From Macrostomum lignano (Eukaryota), in the NCBI GenBank assembly GCA_002269645.1, contig NIVC01002957.1, positions 3,258 through 67,257 of the forward strand: 64,000 nucleotides of DNA. Reading direction: 5' to 3'. The position numbers were made by a program, and so were the translations under genes. Below, one piece after another: positions 1-61,899 of this stretch (its first letter is position 1; the number at the start of each line of letters is the position of its first letter). The notes under the pieces are model-generated. The model was not told the origin of the DNA and did no database searches. It saw only the letters and a program-made list of their open reading frames with translations.

Positions 1-211
1 TTTTTAATTTGTTTTTTAATCCATGTTTAAGAAATTCATAATATTTTATTCTAGGTTTATTAGTATAAATTATTAAATTATTATAGTCTAACATTCCATC
101 TGTTGTTAATAAATCGTAAACAAAGTGTGTTTTTCCTTTACCTGATCCTCCGATTACTAAACAAAGAAAAGGATCATTTGGAAATATTTTATTGTGTTTT
201 GCCTTTACCAT
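1..211 (-). CDS. Polinton DNA-packaging ATPase (A32/FtsK-like), N-terminal part, runs off window edge
   Basis: Not in the ORF track. Manual translation from ATG at 211: MVKAKHNKIFPNDPFLCLVIGGSGKGKTHFVYDLLTTDGMLDYNNLIIYTNKP..., with Walker A GGSGKGKT at 151-128 and an LDYNNL motif typical of Polinton ATPases. Confidence 0.88.
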   Translation of the reverse strand, partial: MVKAKHNKIFPNDPFLCLVIGGSGKGKTHFVYDLLTTDGMLDYNNLIIYTNKPRIKYYEFLKHGLKNKLK

Positions 212-295
212 TTTTAAAGAAATAATTTAAATAGGCGCGACGGTCGGAGACCTGCACTCATTTTACAATGGCGCGACGTGCTTTGCACTGCGACA

Positions 296-1768
296 CTAAA
301 GTGGCGCGTCCCGAACAATCGTGCCATCAGCTTTAGCAATTGACATATATTCCTCTAGAAACAATACGTGGGCGTCAAGTGCCTGATTACCGGTTTTATT
401 AATCTCTAACATATAATTAAGTCCAATATTGGCTACGTTTTCTTTCTGTGCCGTTAGATCATAAACAACCACTGGATGAATGTTTAGAAACTCTGTGGGT
501 GTGTACTGAGGGACGGCATACGCTTCATTTTTGGCATAATCTTGATAATATTTTATAAAATCATTAACATTATTATTTGCTATATTTAAATTTAGGGGGT
601 CTTTAACCGGATAATATTGATCATCAACCTGCAGGCGGATATTCTGAACATTAAACTCGTTAATTGCAGCAACTGCGTTGTCTGTTGCGGTAGCTGCTTG
701 TGCTGCTATGTCACCCGATTGAAGCCAATATAAATCCCCATTTGCTCTTTTACTCCTTCTGTTTGTTATTTTAAACCAAACAAAAATATATCTCACCCGA
801 CGTTTTGATGTCAGTATTTGCCACTGGAATGAATCCTGATTGTTATTAATGGTTCGCATAAAGTGTCTACGATTCAAATAAAATATTTCCTGATCATGCG
901 TTAACTGATTATCGATGTGTTTTAAAAGTGGGGCTGTTACCTCAATAGTTGGTACGACTAATTGAATTGAATCTATACGAACTGCTATATCGGTTGAAAT
1001 TGAGGTTCCATAAAGTATCCTAGGCTGATATCCACCAGATATTTGCAACTGTATCCCAAATTTTAATCCTTTCCATACCCGATTTGGTGAGAAGAACCCA
1101 AATAGCGGGAAGATTGAAAAGTCCTGCTCATATGCGGTTGCTGTGGTTAAAACCGCTACTGGGAATTTAGTCTGTCTATCTATAAAACCAGTATTAATAT
1201 CTTTTGTATTAGTCATAGTGGTTACAACTGGAACTATGTTTGTATTAAGGTAAACAATTAGCGCTGCAGTATCTGCACCGGCTGCGTTTTGTACATTAGG
1301 GAAAACTACTGCTTGACCGTTACCTTTATCCGGCATCCACCCAACATTATCACCAACTTGTTTTGATAAATAAGTATAATTTAAATGTTTCAAAACTCCA
1401 TTAATCTCTGCGGGGTTTGATGATGTCTCAACCTCAGCACCATTAACAGTTAGTTGAGCTTGGGAAAAACATTTATAAAACCAATCATTTTCTATTATTA
1501 TTCCGGATCGATCTGCGATATCTCCGGCTGCAAGAGCAGTTCCATCATTTCTAGTATACAACCATCTAACACGGAAAAATGCATTTTTCATATCCAATAT
1601 AGTGTTGGTTGCGCCGATGTCAAAAGTTACCGTTCCAGTAGTAAAGTTATTTGAATTATCACTTGTTGGTAGGGTATAATTTAAATCTCTTGCTCTGACC
1701 TCATTAATATACTGTCGGTGCTTTTTGAAATGAAATTTATCACTCCACATAGTTTTTGTTTCAGCCAT
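296..1768 (-). CDS. Polinton major capsid protein (double jelly-roll), 490 aa
   Basis: Intact ORF of typical MCP size with beta-rich pattern (TFDI...LDMKNAFFRV...FSQAQLTVNGAEVE...NVGWMPD), adjacent to the packaging ATPase. Assignment is by remembered motif similarity. Confidence 0.8.
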   Translation of the reverse strand: MAETKTMWSDKFHFKKHRQYINEVRARDLNYTLPTSDNSNNFTTGTVTFDIGATNTILDMKNAFFRVRWLYTRNDGTALAAGDIADRSGIIIENDWFYKCFSQAQLTVNGAEVETSSNPAEINGVLKHLNYTYLSKQVGDNVGWMPDKGNGQAVVFPNVQNAAGADTAALIVYLNTNIVPVVTTMTNTKDINTGFIDRQTKFPVAVLTTATAYEQDFSIFPLFGFFSPNRVWKGLKFGIQLQISGGYQPRILYGTSISTDIAVRIDSIQLVVPTIEVTAPLLKHIDNQLTHDQEIFYLNRRHFMRTINNNQDSFQWQILTSKRRVRYIFVWFKITNRRSKRANGDLYWLQSGDIAAQAATATDNAVAAINEFNVQNIRLQVDDQYYPVKDPLNLNIANNNVNDFIKYYQDYAKNEAYAVPQYTPTEFLNIHPVVVYDLTAQKENVANIGLNYMLEINKTGNQALDAHVLFLEEYMSIAKADGTIVRDAPL

Positions 1769-1802: not shown

Positions 1803-2474
1803 ATGAGTCAATTTATGGACGTTGATGGAGAGTTAGCGATTTATAAAGAGAAGCAAAGATATTCTGATTTTGTTAGAAATTTACAAAAAAGAAAGTTAGG
1901 AATACAATTAGCTGGCGAAAGATTTGCTGCTCCTTTTGTTAATCCTATTACTGGGAAAATTAGTGAACTAGAAAAAACAGATAAAGATCTTCTGGAAAAA
2001 ATTGCTAAAAATACTGAGCCAAAAGAGGATGAAATTTTGGATGAGCCGCCTGCTTATGATGTTGATCAAGCTCAATTGAGAATTGCAGAGATTAGACGTG
2101 CAGAGCGGGGCGATCGGGAACAATATCCAAGAGTACCAGCTAGTATTGCTGCGACAGATTTAGGTAATAATAATTATCGAATTGGTGGAGTTGATAAAAA
2201 TCGAAATGAACTATATAGAGAATTGGGTGGAGCATATAATATTGTTATGAACCCTAGGGTAAAGTTTAACCCTGATTTATATACTAGGGATGAATTAATA
2301 AGTGCTAGAATTTTTTATGATGAGTTAGGAGGAGCTGTTAAAAATACCAGCTTGTATAAAAGGATTGTTAATTCTATAAATAACAAACCGCCTGTTGGTG
2401 ATGGATTTAAAACACCACGAAAACTTGTTTTAGCTGCTGCGAAAGCTGCTGGACATACAGGAATCGCCCCGTAG
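1803..2474 (+). CDS. Polinton hypothetical protein, 223 aa (possible virion core protein)
   Basis: Intact ORF divergent from MCP. C-terminal GDG...RKLVLAAAKAAGHTG resembles the RLxLLxA...AG(N/H) motif of conserved Polinton proteins (weak, from memory). Confidence 0.6.
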   Translation: MSQFMDVDGELAIYKEKQRYSDFVRNLQKRKLGIQLAGERFAAPFVNPITGKISELEKTDKDLLEKIAKNTEPKEDEILDEPPAYDVDQAQLRIAEIRRAERGDREQYPRVPASIAATDLGNNNYRIGGVDKNRNELYRELGGAYNIVMNPRVKFNPDLYTRDELISARIFYDELGGAVKNTSLYKRIVNSINNKPPVGDGFKTPRKLVLAAAKAAGHTGIAP

Positions 2475-2526: not shown

Positions 2527-3096
2527 ATGGATGAAACAAAAATTTGTACTACGTGTAAAATTGAGAAACCGATGACTAAAGAATTTTTTTGTTGGAGAAA
2601 TGACACAAAAAAATTTAAAAATCTTTGTCGATCTTGTGAGAAAGTTAAATGTACTATGTGGAGAATAAACAATAAAGATAAATGTAATAAATATGCAAAA
2701 AATAAATATCGCACTGATGAAAATTTCAAAAATATTAGTCTAATTAGAGCTAAAATAACTTGGGCATTGAGAACTTTTCATGACAAACATTATATCTCCT
2801 ATCTTGGTTGCACAAAAGAATTCTTTTTTGATTGGTTAAATTTCACAAGAAATTATTATGTTCCAAAAAAATATACTGGAAAGTTAGATATTGATCATTT
2901 CATTCCCGCTTCTTCATTTAATTACAAAGACGATGATCAGATTAAAAAGTCTGAAAATTGGAGAAATAAAAGATACTTAACTAGCGTAGATAATAACTAT
3001 AAAAAAGTTAAACAACCAACAATTGAAGAATTTGCGAAACAATTGGTGCTATCATGTATTTTTAAGGCTATTAAAAATGAACCAAATAGTGTTTGA
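2527..3096 (+). CDS. Free-standing HNH endonuclease with N-terminal CxxC...CxxC zinc module, 189 aa
   Basis: CTTC...CRSC N-terminus, then YLGCTKEFFFDWL...IDHFIPASSF...NWRN...DNNYKK, the DH-N-N pattern of giant-virus/phage-type HNH endonucleases. The stop overlaps the first 20 nt of the next gene. Confidence 0.8.
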   Translation: MDETKICTTCKIEKPMTKEFFCWRNDTKKFKNLCRSCEKVKCTMWRINNKDKCNKYAKNKYRTDENFKNISLIRAKITWALRTFHDKHYISYLGCTKEFFFDWLNFTRNYYVPKKYTGKLDIDHFIPASSFNYKDDDQIKKSENWRNKRYLTSVDNNYKKVKQPTIEEFAKQLVLSCIFKAIKNEPNSV

Positions 3097-4654
3097 AGGA
3101 GGATTTTTAGACTTACAAAAAGGATTAACGAGCTTACCACCAATCTTTACTACTGGTAAATATACAGGGGAACTACACCTACCATCAATGAACTTCACAG
3201 GTTAACCCGTGGCCTGAGTGAGGAAGGCAATGTCCTTGCTAGTCACTATTTGTGGCGACATCTCCAAATTGCGTGAAACCCGTCATACAGCTTCAAGTAC
3301 CACTTCAAGTGAGAAATCTTTTGAAGGAACAGAGGTAACTCCTCTTCCCAAAGGTAAAAAGCTTGAAGACACGGTGGCAATGCGCAGCCAAGCTCCTAAG
3401 TATTTTAAATATAAGGAGAAGGTTCAGAGAGCAGACGGAGATGGGCGGTAATTATCGCCGCTTAAGGTGTGCTCCAGCCTCATTCGAAAGATTGAGGGTA
3501 AACAGCCGGGGACTAGACTGGATTTAAGATTAAATCCTGACAATACTCCAAAATCTGATTCAATTCCAATAAATGGGATTGATTGGTTAGCATACTATCA
3601 CGACTTAGCATATAGAGATGCTGACAAGAACCCGCCCGAGGAAGCATTAAGATTAAAACATGAAGCCGATCAAAAAATGATTCAAGGATTAGATAACTTG
3701 CAGGGATTATCGGTAGGTCAAAAATTAACTAGGTGGATGGTTAAAAAGATCTTGCAGTCTAAAGTTAAATTTGGTTTGGGAATTAATTATAATCAACATG
3801 GAAATAATTGTGTTGAGTGTTTACTATTAAGTGGCAGTGGGTTAAGTTCTGATGAGGCAAAGATTCTTCATAAAGAATATCGAAAACCTAAATTTTATAG
3901 AAAAATCATGAACTTCAAAAAGAATGAAATTTGGTATTCTGATTTAATGTCGATGCCGAAAGATCTGGGATATAAATATATCTTAACCATATTAGATGGT
4001 TTTACTCGATACGCGTGGGCTGTTCCTTTAAAATCCAAAAAGGGAGAGGAGGTTGCTGCTGCTTTTAGAAGTCTTGGAGAAAAAAGCGAAAGATTGTGTG
4101 TTGATGAAGGAAAAGAATTTTACAATCCTCATATGTATAAATTGTATCATTTTGAAAAAGGAAAAGAAAGGAAAAAAGACGCGAATGGGGAGTATATTAA
4201 TAAAATTTATTCTATTTATGGAGAGAGTAAAAACGCATTAATAGAAAGATTTAATCGAACTTTAGGTAAGAAATTATGGTTTCAGTTTAGTCTTAATGGA
4301 AACCAAAAGTGGGTAAAAATATTACCAGACGTTGTAAAAGATTATAACAATTCATATCATTCGGCGATAAAGATGACTCCTCAACAAGCTTATAACAATC
4401 CTGAAAAAGTTAAAGTTACTTTTGGAAAATTTGAAAAAAATAAAAAGAAATCTTTTAAGGTTGGTGATTCTGTTTATATCTATAAATGGAAAGATAAGTT
4501 TGAAAAAGGAAGAAAAGGATATTGGAAGATAAGTGAGAAATTTACTATCAGTAAAGTTTTAAATACCAATCCTACAACCTATATAATTGCTGATAAGGAC
4601 GGTGAAGAAATATTGGGTTCTTTTTATGAGAACCAGATAATGTCTGCGAACTAA
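3077..4654 (+). CDS. PLA2 (parvovirus VP1u-like)-retroviral integrase fusion, 424 aa after removal of group I intron; exons 3077-3202 and 3506-4654
   Basis: Joined exons read ...ELHLPSMNFTG|PGTRLDLRLNPD...PINGIDWLAYYHDLAY...EADQKM (PLA2 Ca-loop GPG, catalytic HD and D). Then come integrase D-D-E motifs WYSDLM, CVDEGKEF and ALIERFNRTL. No C-terminal chromodomain. Confidence 0.88.
3203..3505 (+). ncRNA. Group I self-splicing intron (IC1-like), 303 nt, no internal endonuclease
   Basis: The 5' exon ends in U3202 and the intron ends in G3505. P1: CAGGU(3198-3202)/IGS GCCUG(3212-3216) with U.G wobble. P3: CAUCUCC(3259-65)/GGAGAUG(3437-43). P4: UGCGU(3270-74)/GCGCA(3382-86). P5a: CUUCAAG(3291-97)/CUUGAAG(3362-68) with A-rich bulge. 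P6a: CUCCU/AGGAG. P7: G-[A]-GAGCA(3427-33)/UGCUCC(3470-75). P8: GGCGGU/AUCGCC. P9 has a GAAA loop (3478-97). Removal restores the frame at a codon boundary. Confidence 0.93.
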
Positions 4655-5219: not shown

Positions 5220-5309
5220 TTTTTATAACAGAAAAAGACCCTTCGCGCCTGCGGCGCGTGCGACGGGTTCTAGAAAGTTTGTGTGTGTTGGAGAGAGTTG
5301 GAAGCGTTG

Positions 5310-5554
5310 ACGATACAAAATACCCAGCAAACCAAAGCGAACGACGAGAGCGTGTTCTCACCATTCAAAAAGAATTAATCGTTGTAAGTGTGAAATGGCC
5401 TGTTTGACCGAAATGAAGCGAGGATGAGCGAAGCGAGTTGAGCGAAGTGAAGACGAGCGAAAATGAAGGGAAACAGGCCATTTCACACTGATAAAGGGTT
5501 AAATTGTTTGCAATGGTGAGAATGGTTTGCTGGGTATTTTGTATCGTATATACT
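5310..5554. repeat. Polinton terminal imperfect palindrome / TIR region
   Basis: Perfect inverted arms: 5310-5334/5523-5547 (25 bp), 5355-5365/5512-5522 (11 bp), 5387-5405/5471-5489 (19 bp). Confidence 0.85.
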
Positions 5555-5557
5555 GAA

Positions 5558-6485
5558 ATCTCTGAGGCAGCTCACTTTTAGGGATCTCTGAGGCAGCTCA
5601 CTTTTAGGGATCTCTGGGGCAGCTCACCTTTAGGGATCTCTGGGGCAGCTCACCTTTAGGGATCTCTGAGGCAGCTTACTTTTAGGGATCTCTCGGGCAG
5701 CTCACCTTTAGGGATCTCTGAGGCAGCTTACTTTTAGGGATCTCTGGAGGCAGCTTACTTTTAGGGATCTCTGGGGCAGCTTACTTTTAGGGATCTCTGA
5801 GGCAGCTTACTTTTAGGGATCTCTGGGGCAGCTCACCTTTAGGGATCTCTGGGGCAGCTCACCTTTAGGGATCTCTGGGGCAGCTCATTTTTAGAGATCT
5901 CTGGGCAGCTCACTTTTAGGGATCTCTGAGGCAGCTCACTTTTAGGGATCTCTGGGGCAGCTCACTTTTAGGGATCTCTGGGGCAGCTCACTTTTAGGGA
6001 TCTCTGGGGCAGCTCACTTTTAGGGATCTCTGGGGCAGCTCACCTTTAGGGATCTCTGGGGCAGCTCACCTTTAGGGATCTCTGGGGCAGCTCACTTTTA
6101 GGGATCTCTGGGGCAGCTCACCTTTAGGGATCTCTGGGGCAGCTCACCTTTAGGGATCTCTGAGGCAGCTTACTTTTAGGGATCTCTCGGGCAGCTCACC
6201 TTTAGGGATCTCTGAGGCAGCTTACTTTTAGGGATCTCTGGAGGCAGCTTACTTTTAGGGATCTCTGGGGCAGCTTACTTTTAGGGATCTCTGAGGCAGC
6301 TTACTTTTAGGGATCTCTGAGGCAGCTTACTTTTAGGGATCTCTCGGGCAGCTCACCTTTAGGGATCTCTGAGGCAGCTTACTTTTAGGGATCTCTGGAG
6401 GCAGCTTACTTTTAGGGATCTCTGGGGCAGCTCACCTTTAGGGATCGCTGAGGCAGCTCACTTTTAGGGATCTCTGGAGGCAGCG
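5558..6485. repeat. 26-bp minisatellite (GGGATCTCTGAGGCAGCTCACTTTTA)n
   Basis: Tandem copies visible directly. Inverted counterpart at about 42999-43327. Confidence 0.95.
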
Positions 6486-7030
6486 CGTTTTTTGGGAGTT
6501 CTGAGGCGAGTCCATGGATGGAGCAGAGCTCATTTAAGGAATCTCTGAACTCAGAGGAAGTCAATTTTGCATCTCTAAATGAAATTTGAAACCATGTTGA
6601 GAACGAGGTGCGACTCAAGTTTTAAATCCTCAGTTGAACTTAGCAGACTTAAGACCATGTTTAGACACGAGACGTATAAAAAAAGGCTGGACCAAAGCCA
6701 ATAAATAATTAATATTACGAAGCTTATTAACAGGATGTTAATGCAAGCCTGAGTGCTGTATTAATGGAGCAATATTAATAGAGTTTATTACGAAAATGCA
6801 TCTTTAGGTTAAATGAATAATTTAGCTTTGATCTAAATTTAGACCAAAGACCAACTGGGGTTTTCCAGTTCGAGTGAAATTCATTTGACGCCTAATTAAG
6901 GCTGGGGAGCGAACTTGTGCAGGTTAAGCCGTTCGGGAAGTTATGGGCTTGACGAACCATCGGCAGGAATTCTCTAAAAGAGCTGCTGATTTTGGCGTCC
7001 TTTACGCGCTCCTGCCGTCCCGACTACTTG

Positions 7031-7735
7031 CTTTTGGCGCCTGATGCTTATTTTTGGCGCCTGATGCTTATTTTTTGCGCCTGATGCTTATCTTTGGCAC
7101 CTGATGCTTATTTTTGGCACCTGATGCTTATTTTTGGCGCCTGATTCTTATTTTTGGCGCCTGATGCTTATTTTTGGCGCATGATGCTTATTTTTGGCGC
7201 TTGATGCTTATTTTTGGCGCCTGATGCTTATTTTGGCGGTTGATGCTTATTTTGGGCGCCTGATGCATATTTTGGGCGCCTAATGCTTATTTTTGGCGCT
7301 TGATGCTTTTTTGGCGCCTGATGCTTATTTTTGGCACCTGATGCTTATTTTTGGCGCCTGATTCTTATTTTTGGCGCCTGATGCTTATTTTTGGCGCATG
7401 ATGCTTATTTTTGGCGCTTGATGCTTATTTTTGGCGCCTGATGCTTATTTTGGCGGTTGATGCTTATTTTGGGCGCCTGATGCATATTTTGGGCGCCTAA
7501 TGCTTATTTTTGGCGCTTGATGCTTTTTTTGGCGTTTGATGCTTATTCTTGGCGCCTGATGCTTATTTTTGGCGCCTGATGCTTATTTTTGGCGCCTGAC
7601 GCTTATGTTTGGCACCTGATGCTTATTTTTGGCGGTTGATGCTTATTTTTGGCACCTGATGCTTATTTTTGGCGGTTGATGCTTATTTTTGGCACCTGAT
7701 GCTTATTTTGGCCCCTGATGCTCATTTAGCGAGCC
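7031..7735. repeat. 20-bp minisatellite (TTTTTGGCGCCTGATGCTTA)n
   Basis: Tandem copies. Inverted counterpart at about 41697-42453. Confidence 0.95.
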
Positions 7736-8635: not shown

Positions 8636-10858
8636 CTAAAGCGAATCATCATCAAACTCGTCGCCCTCGCCGCCGTCCAGCAGGTGCACCCAGCGATAGT
8701 GAGCAACCAAAGCCACCCGGTTCGGACAGAAGGTGCGGCACACCTGGCAGCCGAACGTGGTGGGCTCGCTGTGCGCCGCCGCCTCGTGCTCAGCCATGGC
8801 CGCGTCGCCGATAAGCCAGAGCCGGCACTCCGGACAGCGCCTGCCCAGCAAGGACCGGTCGGCCGGGTTCAGGTGCACCAACACCTGCGATGTAAATGGA
8901 ATTGCGTTTTTTTGCAAGGCCTTTGGTGCTTAAAGACTCAAGCTACTTACTAAGTAGTAAAATGATAGAATTTTGTGCAACGACAAGCGAACAGACCTGG
9001 TGGTTCTGCAGCAGCTCCGAGCCTGGGAAAGCTTCGTAGCAGGCGCCACACATCAACACCTGCGGCCGGCTGTGCAGTCGACTGCCAGCTCCAGCGACAG
9101 CGCCGGAGGCCTCGGCGGCCGCGGCATCGCGAACATGCCGCTGCAGTCGGGCGGGCGACACCTCGGCAAAGCAGAACGGGCACCGGGTGCTCTGCGGCCC
9201 GGCCGCTGCCGCCTCAGTCGCCGCGGTTGCATCGGCCAGCGACCAGGCCGACAGCACGCGGACTTCCTCAAGCCTGAAGGAGTCGCAAAGGCGGCGATGG
9301 TTGGCTAGAAACTCGGCCGAGACAAACGACAGCTGGCAAAGGTCGCACTGGTGCCGCTCCGACATCAGCGCGTCCTCCTCGCTGACTGTGGAGGCGTCGA
9401 GGTCGCAGGACACGGCAGCTGATGGATGCTGCTGCTGCTGCAGTCGCATTGTGGTTGGCGGAGGTGGTGGTGGCGGCGGCGGCGGCATGGACTTGTCGGG
9501 CAGCTGGCCTGGCCGCAGGCAGTGCGCTGCCGCTTCTGCTACGGATTCGTCAGTGTCCAGCAATGCCACTGGGCTGGCCGGAGGCGACACGGAGAAAGTG
9601 GCATCGGAGGCGGCGGCGGGCTCTGACGACTGTCTGGCCAGGCGGCAGTTGGCGTAGCGGAGCAGAGACTCAATTTCAGACCGGGACAGCAGCCGGTGCA
9701 CCTTGGTGATGTGCGAGTAAGCGTGCTGCCTGCGGTTGAAGCCTCGCCGACAGCGCATGCAGATGTAATTGGCGCGGTGCATGCTGCGGATGTGCCGGAG
9801 CAGGGTGGTGCGGCAGGACAGCACCTTGCCGCAGTGGCCGCACTTGCAGTTGGCTGCACTCGCGGGCTTGGAGGCTGGCTGCTTCTGTTGCTGGGCAGAC
9901 TGCAGCACCTGCGGCAGCGACTGCAGGCGGGTTATTTTCACCAGCAGCTTGCTCTTCTCGCCCGGCTGCTTTGCGGCCAAGTCAGGCGGCTCCTTCTTGA
10001 CGTCAGCAGCCGCAGCCGCCTCCGATTTCTTAAGCCGCGGCCGTCCGCCCATGGTTAACCAGGCCTCTCTGTGGTAGCGGCGCATGTGCCGGGAATAGTT
10101 AGTGAAGCCAACCAGCTTATGGCAGATCGGGCACAATTTACCCGGCCGCTTGTTGTTCGGCGTTGCCGTTGCGGCCGAACCCGCCGACGCTTTGGTTGAA
10201 TTCGTGGCCGAGCTGGAGTTCAGCGAGATCCGATCGGCGTCACTGTCGGCTCCGTCGGCTTCATCCGACTGCTCAGCTTCCTCGTGCTCCTGCTGAGCCG
10301 GCTTGTTTTTTGCTTTCCCGCCAGCTGTCAGGCGCCGATTCCCGAATTGGCGCCAGCGGTTTCGGGCTAAGCGGCGCATTTTGGCCCACTTGACCGGGTG
10401 GACGCGGCACATGTGGCTGCGGAACCCGCTGCCCGAGTGCAGCTGCCGGCCGCACTCCCGGCACTGCAGGTCCAGCGGCACCGGCACCGCGCGAGGCCCG
10501 ACCGACTTGGCCGGGCCGGCAGCCGCGCCAGGGGACAAGCGATTGCCGACGCTGCCTTCGCCGCCGCTGCCCCATCGTCTTTGCCGCCGCCACCGACGCC
10601 GGTTTCTTCAGTCCCTTCTTCAGTCGCTTCGGCCGCGTCGGCGGCGCCGGCCTCGATGCCGTGGGCCAGCAGCTCGTGGCGTTGTCGGCGGCCCCGCTGA
10701 GAGAACCGCTCGCCGCACCGGCGGCAGGCGAATTTCCAGGGCCGGTGCCGGTGCACCAGGTGGCGGCCCAGGCCCTGCGATGAGTTGGTGATGAACGGGC
10801 AGTGCGGGCACTTGTAGATGCCACCGCCGCTGCTGCCGGTGCTGCCGCGGGAGGCCAT
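8636..10858 (-). pseudogene. C2H2 zinc-finger gene, duplicate copy with 1-nt frameshift (exons 10858-8997, 8884-8636)
   Basis: Near-identical to 38347-40568, but has GATGGGGC (G4) instead of GATGGGGGC (G5) at about 10570-10573, splitting the ORF into 10367-10858 and 8943-10538. This may be a sequencing indel. Confidence 0.75.
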
Positions 10859-10974
10859 GCTTTAGCCGCTAATTAATGCAGCATTGAGCCAGATGATTCT
10901 AAGAAAATGCCGAGACGGAGCTGCTGCGGGATATTCGTGAGCTGGCATGCAGTGCCTGACATCTGGGGTTGAGG

Positions 10975-12488
10975 GTTGCTCAGGTGATAATCAGGGGGTC
11001 AAATGGGATTGACTGCTCAGGTGATAATCTGGGGATCAACTGGGATTATTGACTGCTCAGATGATAATCAGGGGATCAAATGGGATTATTGACTGCTCAG
11101 GTGATAATCAGGGGATCAAATGGAATTATTGACTGCTCAGGTGATAATCAGGGGATCAAATGGGATTATTGACTGCTCAGGTGATAATCAGGGGATCAAC
11201 TGGGATTATTGACTGCTCAGGTGATAATCAGGGGATCAAATGGAATTGTTGACTGCTCAGGTGATAATCTGGGGATCAAATGGGATTATTGACTGCTCAG
11301 ATGATATTCAGGGGATCAAATGGAATTATTGACTGCTCAGGTGATAATCTGGGGATCAAATGGGATTATTGACTGCTCAGGTGATAATCAGGGGATCAAC
11401 TGGGATTATTGACTGCTCAGGTGTTAATCAGGGGATCAAATGGGATTATTGACAGCTCAGGTGATAATCAGGGGATCAAATGGGATTATTGACTGCTCAG
11501 GTGATAATCAGGGGATCAACTGGGATTATTGACAGCTCGGGTGATAATTAGGGGATCAAATGGGATTATTGACTGCTCAGGTGATAATTAGGGGAACAAC
11601 TGGGATTATTGACTGCTCAGGTGATAATCAGGGGATCAAATGGGATTATTGACTGCTCAGGTGATAATCAGGGGATCAAATGGGATTATTGACTGCTCAG
11701 GTGATAATCTGGGGATCAAATGGGATTATTGACTGCTCAGATGATAATCAGGGGATCAAATGGGATTATTGACTGCTCAGGTGATAATCAGGGGATCAAA
11801 TGGGATTATTGACTTCTCAGGTGATAATTAGGGGATCAAATGGGATTATTGACTGCTCAGGTGATAATCAGGGGATCAAATGGGATTATTGACTGCTCAG
11901 GTGATAATCAGGGGATCAAATGGGATTATTGACTGCTCAGGTGATAATCAGGGGATCAAATGGAATTATTGACTGCTCAGGTGATAATCAGGGGATCAAA
12001 TGGGATTATTGACTGCTCAGGTGATAATCAGGGGATCAACTGGGATTATTGACTGCTCAGGTGATAATCAGGGGATCAAATGGAATTGTTGACTGCTCAG
12101 GTGATAATCTGGGGATCAAATGGGATTATTGACTGCTCAGATGATAATCAGGGGATCAAATGGAATTATTGACTGCTCAGGTGATAATCTGGGGATCAAA
12201 TGGGATTATTGACTGCTCAGGTGATAATCAGGGGATCAACTGGGATTATTGACTGCTCAGGTGTTAATCAGGGGATCAAATGGGATTATTGACAGCTCAG
12301 GTGATAATCAGGGGATCAAATGGGATTATTGACTGCTCAGGTGATAATCAGGGGATCAACTGGGATTATTGACAGCTCGGGTGATAATTAGGGGATCAAC
12401 TGGGATTATTGACTGCTCAGGTGATAATTAGGGGAACAACTGGGATTATTGACTGCTCAGGTGATAATCTGGGGATCAACTGGGATTA
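10975..12488. repeat. 40-bp minisatellite (GTGATAATCAGGGGATCAAATGGGATTATTGACTGCTCAG)n
   Basis: Strict 40-nt periodicity. Inverted counterpart at 36541-38228. Confidence 0.95.
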
Positions 12489-13381
12489 TAACAGAGCAAA
12501 AATCTCTCTAGTGCATAAAAAATTCCACAAAGCAGACACCTGCAATAAAGAAGGCGGAACACAATAAACAAGATCTGAATAGAACGCAGTAACAATTCAA
12601 ATATTTATTCAATATTTGACATCTGAATAAAGCTTGAAACTAACTAATCGAAGTAAGAACCGATCAGGAAATTTCATCGCGATAGGGTGAGGGTCGCCTT
12701 GGCACTGCAGCGCTTACAGAGCACAGTTTATAGATAGAAACGAATATCCAAGTAGCAAAAATAGAAAAATTAAACAAAACTTTTTTATCAATAGACTTCA
12801 AGATAAGGCTTACACAGATTCTATTTATTGCTATAAGTTACCGGTTTAATAAAATCTGCAATAGGATTAAGAATGTGCATTGCGAATAAAAAAGGATGAG
12901 TTCTTGGAAAAATTAAAATCATTAAACGCCAATTAAAAAAGCCTTTAAAATTGTATTGAAAACATACTATACACACTACTGATCGATCGATCCAAGTAAG
13001 TAGTTGAGATGCTGAGAAATAGGAAAACAAAATCGCGCAAGATTCATGGCAATCTGATTACCGCACAGAGTTCCCTTATATTATGTTTCTAGTTTTTATT
13101 TGATTTTGAATGTCTACAACTACTTAAAGTAGTAGCTGGATTTACCAAGAAATGGCACCCGGCGGCAATGCGAACAGCCGATGATGTACAAAAACAAAGA
13201 GGAATTACGGATTAATAAATAATTAAAAAATTGATAAAAATTTTAGTGACACCCGAAGTTATATAAAGATAATTCGTTGCTTTCCACCATAGCTAAACAA
13301 AAAGCCGAACTAACTTACTCGCTACTAACAGTAGTAAATATAAAATTAAGTTTCAATCGGTGTGTAGATGCGGCCTGGCTG

Positions 13382-14787
13382 TTACAGAATGTCGCGCCAG
13401 TTCAACTTCGCGTCGACCTGGTGGTCGCCATCAACCGTCAGGTCGTCCAGATGGTCGGCCAAATCGACCCGGAAGCGGGCCCGGAAGTTGGCCTCCGTAG
13501 GCATGTAGGGATACCAGAATACGAAGTTCACATCCCAGACATTGTTAAGCATGTTGAATGAGATGCCGGCAACCTTGGAATCGGGCACGGGGCTCATGGG
13601 CACCGGCCACACGGTCGGCCCGTAGGAGGCCGTGCGCGGACAGGCCAGGCTGGAGTCCAGCGACTGAACTCGCAGCTCCGCTTTGCCCTGCGACAAAAAT
13701 AGTAGCGATGCTCTACTGTCAGTAGGTTGGATAGGAAGCTGCGGCACTTATTAAATTAGGAGTGTGCACAAATCTATGTTGGCAATATTCAGGAAAGAGG
13801 TTTTAAAGGTGATTTTAATCTTATTACAGCACTTATTGGAAATCGATTCTTTATACTCGTAGTAATTAGAAGACCGTTTCTTTCATAGCGCTTGGGAGGC
13901 AGCTTTTGACGTAGGATTAGAGGGAGGTTTTGATAAGGGATTAGAGAGAGATTTGACATGCTTATAGAGAGATTTTAATAAGGGATTAGAGAGAGATTTG
14001 ACATGCTTTTAGAGAGATTTTAATAAGGGATTAGAGGGAGATTTGACATGCTTTTAGAGAGATTTTAATAAGGGATTAGAGGGAGATTTGACATGCTTTT
14101 AGAGAGATTTTAATAAGGGATTAGAGGGAGATTTCACATGCTTTTAGAGAGATTTTAATAAGGGATTAGAGAGAGATTTGACATGCTTTTAGAGAGATTT
14201 TGATAAGGGATCAGAGAGAGATTTGACATGCTTTTAGAGAGATTTTGATAATGGATTAGAGAGAGATTTGACAAGCTTTTAGAGAGATTTTAATAAGGGA
14301 TTAGAGGGAGATTTCAACATGGGATTAAAGGAAGATTTTGACATGGGATTCGGGAAAAATTTTGACATGGGATTAGAAGGAGATTTTGACATGGGATTCG
14401 AGAGAGATTTGACATGGGATTCGAGAGAGATTTGACATGGGATTAGAGGGACATTTTGACATGGGATTAGAGGGAGATTTTGACGTGTTTAAGGGAGATT
14501 TTCTTAAAACCGGGAACATACTTTACCTGCTGACGGAAGGCGACGCTGTACGGCGAGTGGCCAACCATGTGCTGCCAGACGCTGCCGTTGGCGGCCACCT
14601 GGCCAACGGCGATATCGTGGCCCAGCTTATTAAGCACGGCCAGGGCGCCAGGCGGCTTTGGGAAGTCAATATAGAAAGCCTCCATCAGGCGGGTGGGAGT
14701 TTTGCTTAGCGACCAGCTGTGCAGAGTGTAGCCGGTGCCAGTGAAGTTGTACATGGCCCACATGCTGGCCGGGGCGCCGTATTTCAC
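13382..14787 (-). pseudogene. Orphan duplicate of last two exons of the GH38-like/DUF5054 gene (14787-14527, 13687-13382)
   Basis: Near-identical to exons 34419-34679 and 35472-35777 with intact splice sites. The upstream exons are absent because the duplication breakpoint lies in intron 4. Confidence 0.85.
13915..14495. repeat. 45-bp (two ~22-bp subunits) minisatellite
   Basis: AGGGATTAGAGAGAGATTTGACATGCTTTTAGAGAGATTTTAATA repeats. Counterpart at 34722-35245. Confidence 0.9.
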
Positions 14788-14917
14788 CTGGGGGGGGGGT
14801 GACAAAGATGTGCCTGCATTGTGCTGTACTTTTATGCCGATTCGGATATTTTACACCAGTCATAAAATTTCACACTAAATTAAATATTTTTCTAAACACG
14901 ATGTAACGCATCATAGA

Positions 14918-15727
14918 AGGTCCCATTTTGGACTCCATAACAGGTCCCGTTTTTGACTCCATAACAGGTCCTAATTTAGACTTCGTAACAGGTCTCATTT
15001 CAGACTCCATAACAGATCCCGTTTTTGACTCCATAACAGGTCCCATTTTGGACTCCATAACAGGTCCCATTTTGGACTCCATAACAGGTCTCATTTCAGA
15101 CTCCATAACAGATCCCGTTTTTGACTCCATAACAGGTCCCGTTTTTGACTCCATAACAGGTCCTAATTTAGACTTCATAACAGGTCTCATTTCAGACTCC
15201 ATAACAGATCCCGTTTTTGACTCCATAACAGGTCCCATTTCGGACTTTATAACAGATCCTAATTCAGACTCCATAACAGGTCCCATTTTAGACTCCATAA
15301 CAGGTCCCGTTTTTGACTCCATAACAGGTCCCAATTAAGACTCCATAACAGGCCCCATTTTGGACTCCATAACAGGTCCCATTTTAGACTCCATAACACG
15401 TCCCGTTTTTGACTCCATAACAGGTCCCATTTTAGACTCCATAACAAGTCCCATTTTGGACTCCATAACAGGTCCCATTTTGGACTCCATAACAGGTCCC
15501 ATTTTAGACTCCATAACACGTCCCGTTTTTGACTCCATAACAGGTCCCAATTAAGACTCCATAACAAGTCCCATTTTGGACTCCATAACAGGTCCCAATT
15601 TAGGCTCCGTAACAGGTCCCATTTTGGACTCCATAACAGGTCCCAATTTAGACTCCGTAACAGGTCCCATTTTGGACTCCATAACAGGTCCCAATTTAGA
15701 CTCCGTAACAGGTCCCAATCATAACAG
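14918..15727. repeat. 24-bp minisatellite (GACTCCATAACAGGTCCCATTTTG)n
   Basis: Tandem copies. Counterpart at 32606-34283. Confidence 0.95.
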
Positions 15728-17724
15728 GTCGATGATTTTACTACTATGAACTACATGTACTAAAGGGCGGGACAAGAGCTAAGTGGGTACAAAAGATTCA
15801 AGGAAAAGGTTACATTTTTTCTGTGAGCCTTTAAAAGGAATAGTAAATAGCCTTAAGTGTCATGTTATCAAAGATTCTGCTACATCGGGTTTTTTTCCAT
15901 TAACGTTAACGCATTTACTACGATGCGGCCTTCTGGCAAAACCTTTGATGAATATCTTGATACTCAGAAGATATAGCGACGTAATAATATCTTATTGAGA
16001 AATAAAATGGGAAACAAGTTGTTGCAGTGAAGTTCGGTAGTAAATTATTTTTAGTAGCTCAATTTCGCATTAGTATTTGGCATTTGCATTTACGTACATT
16101 TAAAGTTATGCAAAATACGCATTTACACTCAAACTTGAAATGATGGATAAAGGGTAATTAATTTTAAGACTAATATCAGCAGAAAGAATATAGACTATCT
16201 AAAATACGAGTAATCATATCTGGTTTATGCTTCCTGAATGTTAAAAGTAGGTAATAGTATGCAATTTAGTTACGGATGTAGACAACATAGGAAATGTATC
16301 AGGGCATTAGTTATTTGAGCATTTTGTGTTGTTTTTTGTTTTTTTTCTCGATTTTTTACTTTGCGAGTTTTTGCAATAGAAAGTTTTAGGGGAGACCCAA
16401 AATTCCCGATTGACATTCAGATTCACATTCAAATTTTAACAAAGCCGCTGTAACTTTTCTTTACTTAAACGAAACGCTTTAAAATTTTACAAAAACTTTG
16501 ACGCAATCAAGAAAAAAAACCACGTAAAATATCTCGGAATTTTAAAATAGACTGTACAAATTATTCACATTTAAAGGGTGCGTTCGAGTGGCTTAAAATA
16601 AGTTAAAATGACTTAAAATGAGTTTAAGCGCCATTTTAACGTCCTCAGTAAAACAAAACAAATGACAAGATTTCATTTTAAAAAACCGGAAAGTATCTGT
16701 ACACAATGTTTTAAGGGTTATAAAAATCTAGTTTAAAATTTTAAATGGGTAGATAGTCAGTCTAAACCTGTTTTTTACATTTTCAGATGGTAATTTATAA
16801 CAAATCGTTAAGTGAGAAATATTTGTCAATGCTGCTTCAGTAAATTGCTTTTTACTAGTGTTGTTCTTTTAGTGTGAATATTCATTTTAACAATAGTAAA
16901 TATCAGTTTAAATTACTCTATCGATAGGTGTGATGAAGTCTAGCTGGCAGTGCATTCTTCGAGCACGCGGTGCCCGAAAGAATAAGTGGTAAAATTATAT
17001 CCGCGCTTTCAATTATAAGTATTCACTGATTGAATAATGTGCATATTGGAAGCAGCTTTACATGTAATTATGTATAGTAGCTGGCATGGTAAAGCTGTCT
17101 TATATCGCTTCTTTTGACTTAATGCCAGAATATGTTTACACATGGCAGCAACTGAATATCTTCAGTAAAAGGAAAAATACGAGTTGCGAGTCTATGTGAT
17201 AAACAAATATACCTGGCTTATGCATCAACTCCTAGTCCCCATGCATGCAATCTACTTTTTTGTTCTGTTGATGGTTCTCTGAATTATTTACTAATGATGA
17301 GAATGTGCCTTATTATTCAATATTCCTTTATTTTTTAAATCAATATTAACCCTCCTCCCAACCAAAACTGTCATTCTCAATTTTTACTGCTTTTAATTTC
17401 TACTTTTACTTATTAACTCGTAAATATAATGTATACTATGTACACACTGCTAAAATTAGTAGTGTAAAAATCCACCAAAAATTAATTTCTAAGTCCATTT
17501 TAAATAAAATTAAATACACATCGTAGAAGATTATTTACATGTCTATTTCTTACTGTGATTGCAAGATGTGCTGAAAGGATGCTTATTATTTTCATTTTTT
17601 CTTATATAATCGCCTGGGCCTTGCTTCCTACAGCTAGAGTTGTAACTTTACTGGGTATGGGGGCACACCAAAGTACTTTTGACATTTGTACTTTATTTTT
17701 CAACTCAATAGCTAAGCAGATGAT

Positions 17725-19203
17725 CCCAAGGATAACGGGAAGGTTCGACTTATTCATGACTGCAGCACGCCTCCGGGCTACTCGGTAAATGACAACTATA
17801 CGAAGAAGCTGAGCCCCAGGTTTGAGTCCGTCAAGAAGGTTGCAGCCTCTATCGGCAAGGGCTGGTTCATGGCAAAGCTTGACTCGTCGCAAGCTTACAG
17901 AAGCGTGGCGATCCATCTGGATGATTACCAGGCGACCGGCATTGGTTGGCGCTTTAAAGGCAACTGTGATCTGACATGGCTTGTCGACACCCGGCTACCC
18001 TTTGGTAGCTGCGCCTCGGTCGAGATTTTCTACCGGCTTACTCAAGCGGTCAAGAGGATGATGGTGCGACGCGGCGTGGCCAATATTTCGGTTTACCTGG
18101 ATGATTTTCTGGTTGCGGCCAAGAGCGAGAAAGAGTGTATGGATGCTCTGAAAGAGCTGATTAAGCTGGTTCGCCAGTTAGGTTTTGGTGTCAATTGGAA
18201 CAAAGTGGTTGAACCTACGCAATGCTTGGTGTATCTCGGTGTGAAGATTGATACTGTCCGTGGAGTTCTTAGTGTGCCGGCGGAAAAGTGTGAGGAAATG
18301 CGCACCACACTGCTTAACTTTTCGCAGCGCAGGCGTCTCTCGAAACGACAGCTTTCGTCGCTTTGTGGCAAGCTCAGCTGGGTCGTCCAGGTGGTGCACG
18401 CTGGGAGTTGCTTCCTAAGACCCCTGTTCGACCTGCTTAATGCCCTGGAAAAGCCACATCACAAAGTGCGTGTGTCCGCTGACACTGTGCGTATTTTACT
18501 CTGGTGGCGAGGTGCCCTTCTGAAGCTGCCTGATTTTCAGCTTTGGAGAAGTTGCACAAACGGCTGGATCATCGAAACCGATGCGAGCAGTGCTGGTGGC
18601 GGAGCCATTTTGCGCAATGGTAGCGGTATGGTGGATTGGCTGTACGTCAATTGGGATCTGGATGCTGGAGGAAAGTTTAAAGACAAGCATATCACGTACA
18701 AAGAAGCTATTGTTCCGCTGCTGGCTATGGTGCGCTGGGGTGCCTTTTTAAATGACAGTTCGGTCGTGGTCTACTCCGACTCTAGTGCGGCTGTTGGCAT
18801 GATTAACAGAGGTTGCTGTCGGCAGCCTGAGTTGCAGCCGCTGTTCCAGACTGCCATGCTCATTGCTGTTAGGCGTGGGGTTGAGGTGCGCGCTTTTCAT
18901 GTGCCTGGCTGGTACCACGTCTTTGCGGACCCGTGCTCTAGGCTGCACGCCGTGGACAAAATGCGCGATTTTTTATTTCGGGTGTATGGCTCTGTTGACT
19001 GCTGTTTTAACGAGATCGCTAGCCATGCTTTCTGCCCTGCTGCCTCCGTTTTTCTCATTTTACAGGCCCTCCGCGCCAGACTCCCGACCGCCTCAGCAAG
19101 CGTTGCGCGTTTATCCTGGGCAATGCCTACGCGCCCCGCACGAAGCGGAGTTACCGGTCGCAGTTCGCGTCTTGGCTGCGATTTTGCAATTCCCGGCACC
19201 TGA
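17725..19203 (+). CDS. Ngaro-type reverse transcriptase/RNase H (N-truncated)
   Basis: The frame opens at PKDNGKVRLIHDCS..SVND (17725), upstream of the ORF-track ATG at 17869. Motifs: RLPFG, YLDDF, YLGV, ETDAS, YKEA, YSDS, HVPG...ADPCSR. Confidence 0.85.
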   Translation, partial: PKDNGKVRLIHDCSTPPGYSVNDNYTKKLSPRFESVKKVAASIGKGWFMAKLDSSQAYRSVAIHLDDYQATGIGWRFKGNCDLTWLVDTRLPFGSCASVEIFYRLTQAVKRMMVRRGVANISVYLDDFLVAAKSEKECMDALKELIKLVRQLGFGVNWNKVVEPTQCLVYLGVKIDTVRGVLSVPAEKCEEMRTTLLNFSQRRRLSKRQLSSLCGKLSWVVQVVHAGSCFLRPLFDLLNALEKPHHKVRVSADTVRILLWWRGALLKLPDFQLWRSCTNGWIIETDASSAGGGAILRNGSGMVDWLYVNWDLDAGGKFKDKHITYKEAIVPLLAMVRWGAFLNDSSVVVYSDSSAAVGMINRGCCRQPELQPLFQTAMLIAVRRGVEVRAFHVPGWYHVFADPCSRLHAVDKMRDFLFRVYGSVDCCFNEIASHAFCPAASVFLILQALRARLPTASASVARLSWAMPTRPARSGVTGRSSRLGCDFAIPGT

Positions 19204-20066
19204 CGCCGCTGCGGGCAGAGCCTGTGCACGTGGCTGAATACCTGGCCGAGCTGTCCACCCGGCTGTCAGCCTTTCGGAGTTGCCAGGCGTATGCTAACGC
19301 GGTCTCGCTGTACTTCAGAGCTCTCGGCCGGCCGGACCCGTGCGAGTCGCCGATGGTTAAGCTGGTGCTTCGTGGTCTTCGCCGGTGTCTCAGTCGGCAG
19401 CAGCGCTCAAGGGAGCCATTCAGAGTCGCGGATCTCCTCAAGCTACACGCCCACCTGGACCAACGTCTGAAGAGTGACATCGCGTTCTGGGCAGCAGTTC
19501 TGGCAGCCTGGTGGGGTATGCTGCGAAAAGCGAATGTGACGACGCAATCGGGGCAGCTCGATCTGTGGTGCGACCTGGCAGCATCGAGCATCGTCTTCTC
19601 AGAGTACGACTGTGAGCTCACTGTGCGGCATTCGAAGACCAACCAGTTTGGCGATCGAGTTCAGCGAGTGTTTCTTCCGAAACTGCCTGATGGAAGCTTG
19701 GGTGTCCTGTGCCCGTTCCGTGCGCTCGAGCGGCAGCTATACGGACAAACCGAATCGGCCAGGCGCCGCGTCCGGTTCACCTGTTCTCCACGTGGTCGTC
19801 CGCGGGATGGTTGCCTCTGACGGCTAGCAGGTTTGATAGCCGGCTTCGTTCGCTCTGCACATCGGCGGGTTTGTCGCCACGCGAGTTCACTGGCCACGGG
19901 CTGCGGCGGGGCGGCGCTACGGCAGCCATGCAGCTCGGTGTTCCACTGTCGATGATCAAGAAGCTGGGCGACTGGAAGGGCAACTCAGTGTTTCGCTATT
20001 TATCTGTTCGGGACTCGGATGCCAGGGCGGCTGTGCATGGCTTGGCTCGTCGGGTTGGCGCGCTCT

Positions 20067-20068
<2 letters not shown>
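19066..20068 (+). pseudogene. Tyrosine recombinase of Ngaro element, frameshifted
   Basis: AYAPRTKRSY...LRFC (about 19123 onward), WWGMLRKAN, HSKTNQFG and CPFRAL in the frame of 19224-19820. HGLRRGGAT and GDWKGNSVFRY are in the frame of 19709-20068. Confidence 0.82.
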
Positions 20069-26100: not shown

Positions 26101-26505
26101 CTGCATTACAGCTCCTTATCCTTATGACTCTCAAATGTGACTTTAATTTAAGGGATCAAACTCAAGTAGTTGATTAGGCTTTAATATCTTGCTACTTAGG
26201 CTAGTTTTTTCTTTATAGTTATATGATGATATTAGCGATCTACTACTATTAGTAATCTCCAATGGTTACCCATTGTTTACTGCAATGAAAGCAGTCTATA
26301 GGTAATGAATGTGCTATAAGGCAAAGCACAGATTTGACTTAACTGCAATAGATTGAGCAACAACTTGTCTATGGTGTAGCCAGCCAACCAAAAACCTTCC
26401 AATTTTGCAATAAGATTAAATAGCCAGTTAGTGCACTCCACCACAAATGCACAGACCAAGAAGCTGCACAATCGACTGAAACCAAACCATTTATTTCAGC
26501 CAGCA

Positions 26506-35500: not shown

Positions 35501-35777
35501 GGACTCCAGCCTGGCCTGTCCGCGCACGGCCTCCTACGGGCCGACCGTGTGGCCGGTGCCCATGAGCCCCGTGCCCGATTCCAAGGTTGCCGGCATCTCA
35601 TTCAACATGCTTAACAATGTCTGGGATGTGAACTTCGTATTCTGGTATCCCTACATGCCTACGGAGGCCAACTTCCGGGCCCGCTTCCGGGTCGATTTGG
35701 CCGACCATCTGGACGACCTGACGGTTGATGGCGAACACCAGGTCGACGCGAAGTTGAACTGGCGCGACATTCTGTAA
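26506..35777 (+). CDS. Secreted GH38-like / DUF5054-family glycoside hydrolase, ~775 aa; exons 26506-27003, 27341-27739, 31025-31447, 32044-32484, 34419-34679, 35472-35777
   Basis: Signal peptide MSQSALLCCLAAVLAATA and N-terminal HLMFMNHLDVGF. Further motifs ENGDTWLQG and EHTYG, and C-terminal FNMLNNVWDVNFVFWYPY typical of DUF5054. All junctions are GT-AG and join in frame. Confidence 0.82.
27925..30875. repeat. 22-bp minisatellite (TGTAGCAAGTGCTGTAGGATAC)n in intron 2
   Basis: About 3 kb tandem array. It explains the long stop-free minus-strand ORFs. Confidence 0.97.
31528..31925. repeat. 16-bp-based minisatellite (TCGAAACTTCATGAGC)n in intron 3
   Basis: Tandem variants seen directly. Confidence 0.9.
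32606..34283. repeat. 24-bp minisatellite (GGGACCTGTTATGGAGTCCAAAAT)n in intron 4
   Basis: Tandem array. Gives spurious MGPVMESK ORFs. Confidence 0.97.
34722..35245. repeat. 45-bp minisatellite in intron 5
   Basis: Inverted counterpart of 13915-14495. Confidence 0.9.
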
Positions 35778-36540
35778 CAGCCAGGCCGCATCTACACACC
35801 GATTGAAACTTAATTTTATATTTACTACTGTTAGTAGCGAGTAAGTTAGTTCGGCTTTTTGTTTAGCTATGGTGGAAAGCAACGAATTATCTTTATATAA
35901 CTTCGGGTGTCACTAAAATTTTTATCAATTTTTTAATTATTTATTAATCCGTAATTCCTCTTTGTTTTTGTACATCATCGGCTGTTCGCATTGCCGCCGG
36001 GTGCCATTTCTTGGTAAATCCAGCTACTACTTTAAGTAGTTGTTGACATTCAAAATCAAATAAAAACTAGAAACATAATATAAGGGAACTCTGTGCGGTA
36101 ATCAGATTGCCATGAATCTTGCGCGATTTTGTTTTCCTATTTCTCAGCATCTCAACTACTTACTTGGATCGATCGATCAGTAGTGTGTATAGTATGTTTT
36201 CAATACAATTTTAAAGGCTTTTTTAATTGGCGTTTAATGATTTTAATTTTTCCAAGAACTCATCCTTTTTTATTCGTAATGCACATTCTTAATCTTATTG
36301 AAAATTTTATTAAACCGGTAACTTATAACAATAAATAGAATCTGTATAAGCCTCATCTTGAAGTCTATTGATAAAAAAGTTTTGTTTAATTTTTTTTCTA
36401 TTTTTGCTACTTGGATATTCGTTTCTATCTATAAATTGTGCTCTGTAAGCGCTGCAGTGCCAAGGCGATCCTCACCCTATCGCGATGAAGTTTCCAAATT
36501 GGTTCTTACTTCGATTAGTTAGTTTCAAGCTTTATTCAGA

Positions 36541-38228: not shown

Positions 38229-38346
38229 ACCCTCAACCCCAGATGTCAGGCACTGCATGCCAGCTCACGAATATCCCGCAGCAGCTCCGTCTCGGCATTT
38301 TCTTAGAATCATCTGGCTCAATGCTGCATTAATTAGCGGCTAAAGC

Positions 38347-61835: not shown

Positions 61836-61899
61836 CTGCAAAAACAGGGACTAACAGGCTTCAAAAACAGGGCCGATGCAGTCTCAAACAGACAAACAG

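Follow-up and report, generated by a model that had tools for sequence, protein, structure and literature searches.

The window, by which we mean the whole stretch of 64,000 nucleotides analyzed here (contig C2957 of a 764-Mb, animal-type genome assembly), begins within a Polinton-type element, in which a gene for a PLA2-like domain fused to an integrase is divided into two exons by a group I intron (Table 1). In Pfam, exon 2 matched rve with an E of 1e-6 and Phospholip_A2_4 with an E of 0.016, neither match reaching the curated cut-off; homologues of the integrase carry PF00665, and the acidic motifs are present in exon 2. Of 36 copies, 27 have an open exon 2 and 9 a broken one.

Table 1. Features of the element, the PLA2-integrase gene and its intron (positions of the window)
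Feature	Positions	Strand	Remarks
A32-like packaging ATPase, gene start	1..226	-	Continues upstream on the contig (L029)
Putative major capsid protein	296..1768	-	Size and position beside the packaging ATPase
ORF of the element, no family match	1803..2474	+	
Free-standing HNH endonuclease, candidate homing nuclease	2527..3096	+	Relatives and viral fold library
Exon 1, PLA2-integrase gene	3077..3202	+	42 codons, the last being that for Gly in the calcium-loop motif
P1	3198..3216	+	C3198-G3216, A3199-U3215, G3200-C3214, G3201-C3213, U3202.G3212
ORF-less group I intron, IC-like	3203..3505	+	303 nt; Rfam score, intron-less alleles, covariation
P2	3217..3240	+	Swapped with four compensated pairs in some copies
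P2.1	3242..3256	+	Loop is the seat of the nuclease ORF in family-2 introns
P3, P4, P5, P5abc, P6/P6a/P6b	3259..3443	+	A-rich bulge and GAAA loop in the P5abc region
P7, P8 and J8/7	3427..3475	+	Guanosine-binding helix, G3429-C3474, bulged A3428
P9.0, P9 (GAAA loop), terminal base	3476..3505	+	G3505 in the window copy
Exon 2: remaining PLA2-like domain and rve integrase	3506..4654	+	His-Asp dyad intact; first in-frame Met at 3677
Right-hand terminal region, window copy	5275..5554	.	Two sister copies match up to 5554, then diverge into other flanks

The element and its host

The packaging ATPase of a sister copy matched Pox_A32 (E = 3.3e-7; 30.5 bits, over the cut-off of 22.8). The copy on contig C110 adds penton-, protease-, fibre- and polymerase-like ORFs, in which motifs A, B and C of a B-family polymerase were read and protease-like motifs were seen. 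No profile matched the polymerase, the protease or the capsid protein, the polymerase also had no PDB match, and the single-sequence fold of the capsid ORF reached a pLDDT of 29; these three calls rest on motifs and position and are putative. In C110 (L024, L025), the block of virion genes is apparently duplicated in tandem within the one copy, and the polymerase is split over two ORFs, one of them with an endonuclease VII domain.

An AGTAGT hairpin terminus is common to three copies lying in three different flanks, one of them within a LINE ORF, and a terminus starting with AG was found at one end in three family-1 and three family-2 copies (for the families, see below). The ends of the element form palindromic hairpins (AGTAGT...ACTACT), which measure about 270 nt in family 1 (L021:7887-8160, L023:7905-8180 and L026:7893-8170) and about 100 nt in family 2 (L078:723-830), and the window's subfamily has a third type of terminus. 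The first-pass annotation of the window had placed the host gene in a Polinton, and the integration, the multiple copies, the integrase, the packaging ATPase and the differing flanks support an integrated, multi-copy Polinton in what appears to be animal-type DNA.

Directly beyond the end of the element lie tandem arrays with 26-nt and 20-nt units (5555-6480 and 7030-7720). They are followed by a duplicated host block (8943-15750 and 26380-40254) comprising a C2H2 zinc-finger gene and a DUF5054 gene with introns rich in repeats, by a DIRS-type retrotransposon with reverse transcriptase and tyrosine recombinase (17716-20068), and by VWD-C8 protein fragments (58849-61850) that adjoin BEL/Pao (50945-52864) and Gypsy (54175-58732) sequences. 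The presence of DUF1759 (BEL/Pao-type), Gypsy and VWD-C8 sequences in the rest of the window is what we take, from general knowledge, to be animal content.

The contigs carrying the element could alternatively derive from a protist that was sequenced together with the animal as its food, symbiont or contaminant, which would reduce the locus to an ordinary case of the published introns in protist Polinton-like viruses. The host was indeed assigned by domain content and not by marker phylogeny, and the accessible part of PMC12220804 provides the protist precedent. Nevertheless, copies occur on contigs reaching about 1 Mb and have clean ends in flanks that differ, the window continues into the BEL/Pao-type DUF1759, Gypsy and VWD-C8 sequences, and the 20 sequencing runs of six studies that contain the stretch bear a single organism label. 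We thus regard a protist source as highly improbable and are confident that the intron is located in animal nuclear DNA.

A group I intron in the codons of the PLA2 calcium loop

The insert separates the Gly codon from the Pro codon of the PLA2 calcium-loop motif. Both boundaries are set by natural intron-less alleles (L076, L063, L065 and L066), in which the exons are contiguous exactly there, confirming the earlier proposal that the motif is split at a codon boundary. If exon 1 is read on into the intron, an in-frame stop is met at 3203-3205. The covariance-model search recommended with the first-pass annotation was run and aligned RF00028 of Rfam over its whole length to 3193-3496 with 65.7 bits (E = 3.7e-16; gathering score, 50). 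Together with the covariation described below, this leaves hardly any doubt that 3203-3505 is a real group I intron. The fast filters of Rfam gave no match in the whole 64-kb window, so that routine annotation misses the intron.

The helices P2, P2.1, P3, P4, P5abc with its A-rich bulge, P6, P8 and P9 with its GAAA loop are all present as first proposed, and so are P1 with the U.G wobble and a P7 that reads GAGCA/UGCUC and contains the G3429-C3474 pair and the bulged A3428. The 5' splice site is 3202|3203, where the U.G pair is formed by U3202 and G3212. The internal guide in the P1 region also forms P10 with exon 2; the use of 3212 for that pairing, as first proposed, was off by one base, as G3212 pairs with U3202. 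P10 starts at 3211 or lower, and the duplex with 3206-3209 amounts to -7.5 kcal/mol. A U.G replaces one G-C pair in P4, G3469 in J8/7 matches the G3431-C3472 swap in P7, and the window copy has an A.A mismatch in P9.0. In what is presumably the GAAA-tetraloop receptor of P6 (3395-3416), position 3414 is A and most relatives have U, a possible sign of a weakened or retuned tertiary contact.

The hallmarks of subgroup IC1 are P2.1, P5abc, long P9 extensions and a best score to the IC1 model. The window's intron possesses P2.1 and P5abc together with a short 3' end that has no room for P9.1/P9.2, and we call it IC-like. Plain folding was modestly better than that of shuffled sequences (z = -1.86, with 4 of 100 shuffles as good); the case for the structure rests on covariation, and free energy is not the evidence.

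Covariation and the viral relatives of the core

The alignment comprised the window's core and 42 of the 54 related cores found by a script, 12 being dropped as near-duplicates or for long insertions. The resulting 43 rows were 6 from this genome, 35 viral and 2 from prokaryote assemblies. With the structure of the window's intron imposed, 89.9% of the cells pair and 41 of the 61 pairs change on both sides among the 43 introns, none of 500 shuffles equalled this and slid controls pair at 37-48%; these figures are not probabilities, since the fetch motif fixes parts of P4, P6 and P7, the structure is that of the window copy and the rows are related to each other. The guanosine-binding G-C pair in P7 was invariant (43/43).

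GAGCA/UGCUC is a known state of P7 in this core family in viral contigs, two of the cases being giant-virus-type RNA polymerase genes. Among the outside cores (69 parsable of 98 distinct ones), all 22 that have G at P7 position 266 also have G at J8/7 position 306, as against 0 of the other 47. This covariation fits what we take to be a base triple of the Tetrahymena structure, whose numbering is likewise assumed. It is thus supported that the intron belongs to a core family common in viral contigs, giant viruses included. The core tree was poorly resolved, with the two intron families of the host grouping only at 88/61, and it names no donor of the intron.

Rfam missed three viral introns with long insertions or partial cores (L085-L087). 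Two introns of the viral family lie 1.4 kb apart on JAQTUL010000001.1 (L296, L297), a contig labelled Candidatus Colwellbacteria that is perhaps a mis-binned viral contig.

Three intron types and empty alleles at one site

A search of other copies for alleles with and without the intron, which the first-pass annotation had suggested, detected 84 copies of the window's intron, 20 empty alleles and two further intron types at the site. All copy counts in the genome are lower bounds. The first reading had missed the majority ending in A, the adjoining nuclease and the other introns. Regarding the window's intron (hereafter family 1), 40 of 212 candidates were scored, all of them 96-100% identical. 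By a 3'-end pattern that admitted only A or G, the last base is A in 65 of the 84 copies and G in the other 19, so that the terminal G noted earlier is true of the window copy and is a minority state in the family. The 3' end of the A-ending introns is fixed by the reading frame and P9.0, and their P10 is weaker (-3.3 against -7.5 kcal/mol). Among 30 rows of 303 nt, of which one is a duplicate place, six have another P2 with four compensated pairs. This alternative P2 is identical to that of the third intron described below, indicating recombination between introns.

The family-2 intron has a canonical P7 and gave 28 scored matches of 72-91 bits; in the ten copies that were fetched, exon 2 follows at the same site. 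In three 5' ends of this family, an ORF begins 78 nt into the intron, within the loop of P2.1. The third intron, for which we assume the label IE-like, was found in 24 copies at 42-43 bits. It shares P2, P2.1 and P5abc with the window's intron and differs in its core (L060-L062; contigs C1307, C103 and C87), and, judging from the pairing at its 3' end, it may be spliced six bases further downstream, at the cost of two codons of the PLA2 loop. An extra hairpin of 30 nt between P5c and P5a occurs in L030, L032, L058 and L077 and also in some family-2 introns, apparently through more shuffling of modules between the intron families.

Only one of the 20 empty alleles belongs to family 1, the other 19 being of family 2. 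The last base of exon 1 is C in all 20 and U in every intron-bearing copy read, as the U.G splice site requires. The intron-less joint of the window's own allele type was sought in DNA and gave no match.

Nucleases beside and inside the introns

The ORF upstream of exon 1 has 1,185 relatives with invariant His and Asn, and its model (pLDDT 94) found its best fold matches in mimivirus L246 and an intron-encoded endonuclease of Bodo saltans virus (E < 1e-8); it had no match in Pfam, in a word-indexed search or in PDB at E < 0.001. This HNH gene was upstream of the ORF-less intron in 37 of 37 loci typed. In some family-1 copies (L080, L081), an Eco47II-like nuclease stands free upstream of exon 1 in place of HNH. 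The ORF inside the family-2 intron is also Eco47II-like (E of about 1e-5, just under the Pfam cut-off; atlas, 0.93), with an open frame of 237 codons in 11 copies, and in L078, L079 and L084 it reads on into the ribozyme core. It is possible that this restriction-enzyme-like fold serves as a homing nuclease.

Among 150 relatives of HNH, four read through into a group I core (the pattern matched five, one by chance). One relative, P0157, reads into an intron that matches the window's with an E of 2e-15, whereas the best E among 50 shuffles was 1e-3. Within the genome, the identity of HNH alleles varies between about 56 and 100%, and that of the exon-2 protein lies mostly near 88-100%. No nuclease was seen with the family-2 empty alleles L063/L083 and L066. 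Upstream of the sole empty allele of family 1, the HNH gene is still open, which is not predicted by simple collaborative homing.

Is the intron still spliced?

A joint that skips the intron was found in the contigs of none of four runs (X3, X1, X10 and X16), three of these runs being RNA by guess and contigs being prone to drop rare forms; among the runs that contain the stretch, none is registered as RNA. The intron itself is covered in all four, and the A-ending type dominates there. On the other side stands the pattern of substitution. The divergence of the intron core (1.3-1.4%) compares with 7.6-8.5% at four-fold sites and 0.9-1.0% at the second codon positions of exon 2 (samples of 22 copies, and of 18 picked by exon 2). 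In exon 1, there were 15 variants at 28 synonymous sites and 11 at 98 nonsynonymous ones (37 copies), and in the 57 codons of exon 2 before the first Met, the corresponding counts were 19 at 35 sites and 17 at 136 (34 copies, misaligned codons being scored against the test); the nonsynonymous/synonymous ratios are near 0.2 in both. The constraint on the 57 codons bears on splicing, because they can be translated with exon 1 only after the intron is removed. A recent homing sweep fits the low divergence of the core as well, polymorphism of the exons may predate the intron, and either could imitate both signals. Altogether, these comparisons suggest that the intron is still under selection, and we consider it probable that splicing continues in vivo.

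The first-pass annotation had also claimed that the intron must self-splice for the integrase to be expressed, and this goes too far. The Met at 3677 is upstream of the integrase core and ten in-frame GT..AG cuts would keep the integrase and lose the PLA2 loop, so that the integrase alone could arise without self-splicing. Spliceosomal removal was also considered as a route to an intact PLA2 and rejected, no GT/GC..AG cut restoring both halves of the loop in frame. The group I splice sites would thus be needed only for the intact PLA2 domain.

Alternatively, most copies may have ceased to splice, their conservation being left from recent homing or amplification of the element, with the integrase expressed by bypass and PLA2 left to the empty alleles. 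The excess of A-ending copies (65 of 84), the weakness of their P10, the lack of a spliced joint in the run contigs and the bypass by the downstream Met or spliceosomal cuts are all compatible with such decay. However, nearly all family-1 copies bear the intron (the empty one being single) and yet the PLA2 codons are constrained on both sides of it, and the swap of P2 is compensated. Furthermore, a coral intron without a terminal G gives ligated exons in vivo, according to the accessible part of PMC6545197. We therefore view a largely dead intron as unlikely. Even less likely, in our judgment, is a condition-dependent switch between the integrase alone and PLA2-integrase that works only in a rare active phase, such as episomal replication, the germ line, stress or co-infection with a giant virus, the chromosomal copies being normally silent or unspliced. 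The giant-virus relatives of the intron and HNH, the constraint without a visible spliced product and the alternative Met agree with a switch.

Directly observed are the intron, its exact site, the empty alleles, integration at many sites, the further introns at the site, and the nuclease genes beside and inside introns. The explanation that we prefer, with a probability of roughly two in three as a whole, is a mobile intron of a giant-virus family that resides in the PLA2-integrase gene of the Polinton, is spliced and has spread by homing. A mobile group I ribozyme, from a family that is widespread among giant viruses, would have entered the calcium-loop codons of the PLA2-integrase gene in an animal Polinton and, as part of the latter, would be borne in nuclear chromosomes. 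Its removal from the RNA polymerase II transcript would take two steps and be initiated by guanosine, proceeding in the A-ending majority probably inefficiently or with the help of protein, and splicing would restore the PLA2 domain on the integrase protein. Homing driven by endonucleases, together with recombination, would carry the introns from one copy of the element to another; ORF-less introns would rely on the free-standing HNH or Eco47II-like nuclease, and family 2 on the intron-borne one. The absence of a skipping joint in the contigs of the four runs, the A-ending majority, the mismatch in P9.0, the broken exon 2 and HNH beside an empty allele count against this explanation.

The same site in other lineages

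In a lineage with 58% identity, the predicted proteins P0003, P0045 and P0124 start like a translated intron core placed directly before the same Pro-Gly, and so do P0130, P0007 and P0143 in a lineage with 47% identity, the latter being a cluster of 34 members on contigs of up to 180 kb. Both lineages have intact sister proteins. In tblastn, the starts of the 58% and 47% lineages gave E of 5e-4 and 9e-6, respectively, against shuffle minima of 8e-3 and 3e-3. These starts suggest introns at the PLA2 site in the two lineages. No DNA with an intron at the PLA2 site was found in other hosts, and none of 87 related loci (80 kept of 479 metagenome relatives, plus 7 viral) had a group I core at the site; the loop is intact in 27 of the 87 by pattern and in about 7 more by eye, and many are without the PLA2 part.

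The clusters of P0157 and of P0130/P0143 list members on contigs of identical size (42,304 and 9,015), hinting that the cluster with HNH in an intron and those with an intron-split integrase represent one composite intron. On the viral contig L168 (position 2501), a PLA2-integrase match begins at the same motif with neither exon 1 upstream nor a group I motif, which may reflect a frameshift or another insert.

More tentatively, and with odds that we put somewhat below even, the locus could be a working system of self-splicing and homing in an animal nucleus. Its ribozymes, many without a terminal G, would splice polymerase II mRNA, several introns and two nuclease families would compete for one PLA2 site, free and embedded states of the nucleases would coexist in one genome, and the same site would have been invaded in the Polintons of other hosts.

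Comparison with known systems

According to the available portions of the literature, group I introns of nuclei are confined to microbial rRNA genes (PMC3679873) and, in a survey of the whole NT database, those of animals were found only in placozoans, corals and sponges, mostly in mitochondria (PMC11835236). The first-pass annotation had likewise taken nuclear group I introns to be essentially confined to rDNA. This overlooked a precedent, as endogenous Polinton-like viruses of the protists Rhodomonas, Paulinella and Desmodesmus carry group I introns (PMC12220804, in the part accessible). Our literature search, mainly of open-access papers and made without the host name, found no report of a group I intron in an animal Polinton or an animal nuclear protein gene, and an earlier mention is possible; the parts compared also included PMC11296320, PMC12768974, PMC6431247 and 10.1101/2023.08.22.554363. 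What appears to be new is a group I intron in an animal-type Polinton, such introns being already known in integrated protist relatives.

With more than a hundred copies, this animal-type nuclear genome departs from the restriction to microbial rRNA genes, and it becomes testable whether a group I ribozyme can survive and splice in polymerase II transcripts of an animal, where the spliceosome is also at work. One genome exhibits empty alleles, introns that lack an ORF but have a nuclease next to them, and introns that contain the nuclease, which together make up a proposed route to mobile introns. The site also offers a natural comparison of G-ending with A-ending ribozymes, and gene flow between giant viruses and Polintons is indicated.

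The following comparisons draw on the accessible parts of the papers cited. Like the present intron, those of protist Polinton-like viruses belong to group I, measure about 300 nt and interrupt a protein gene of a Polinton-type element that is integrated into a nuclear genome. They differ in being reported from protists only (13 of the 51 intron rows in Table S11 were compared, all protist), and that of Rhodomonas occupies a short gene lying upstream of the one for the capsid (PMC12220804). Here, in contrast, the host is of animal type, it is PLA2-integrase that is interrupted, and one site unites three types of intron with empty alleles and nucleases. Bodo saltans virus and other giant viruses share the core family, the GAGCA/UGCUC P7, ORF-less as well as nuclease-bearing forms, and a similar HNH fold (PMC5871332). 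Their introns lie in RNA polymerase genes of large protist viruses with splicing confirmed by RT-PCR (PMC5871332), whereas ours is in a small integrated element and its splicing is predicted from sequence.

The rDNA introns of fungi, algae and protists are also nuclear and have an IC-like core with P5abc, but interrupt microbial rRNA genes, in contrast to the protein-coding gene of an animal-type genome (PMC3679873). The hexacoral ND5-717 intron is similar in its animal host, its protein-coding gene and the loss of the terminal G, and differs in being mitochondrial, obligatory and spliced in vivo (PMC6545197). Adintoviruses and Polintons with PLA2 share the integrase, the B-family polymerase motifs, the packaging ATPase and a PLA2-like domain; there, PLA2X is a separate gene and the accessible text mentions no group I intron, whereas PLA2 is fused to the integrase here (PMC8502044). 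Finally, collaborative homing in phages presents the same arrangement of an ORF-less intron beside a free-standing nuclease, with members of the same nuclease family also moved into an intron (PMC3984707). The system described here departs from it in that one empty allele keeps the HNH gene, and the candidate nuclease is known from its sequence and model.
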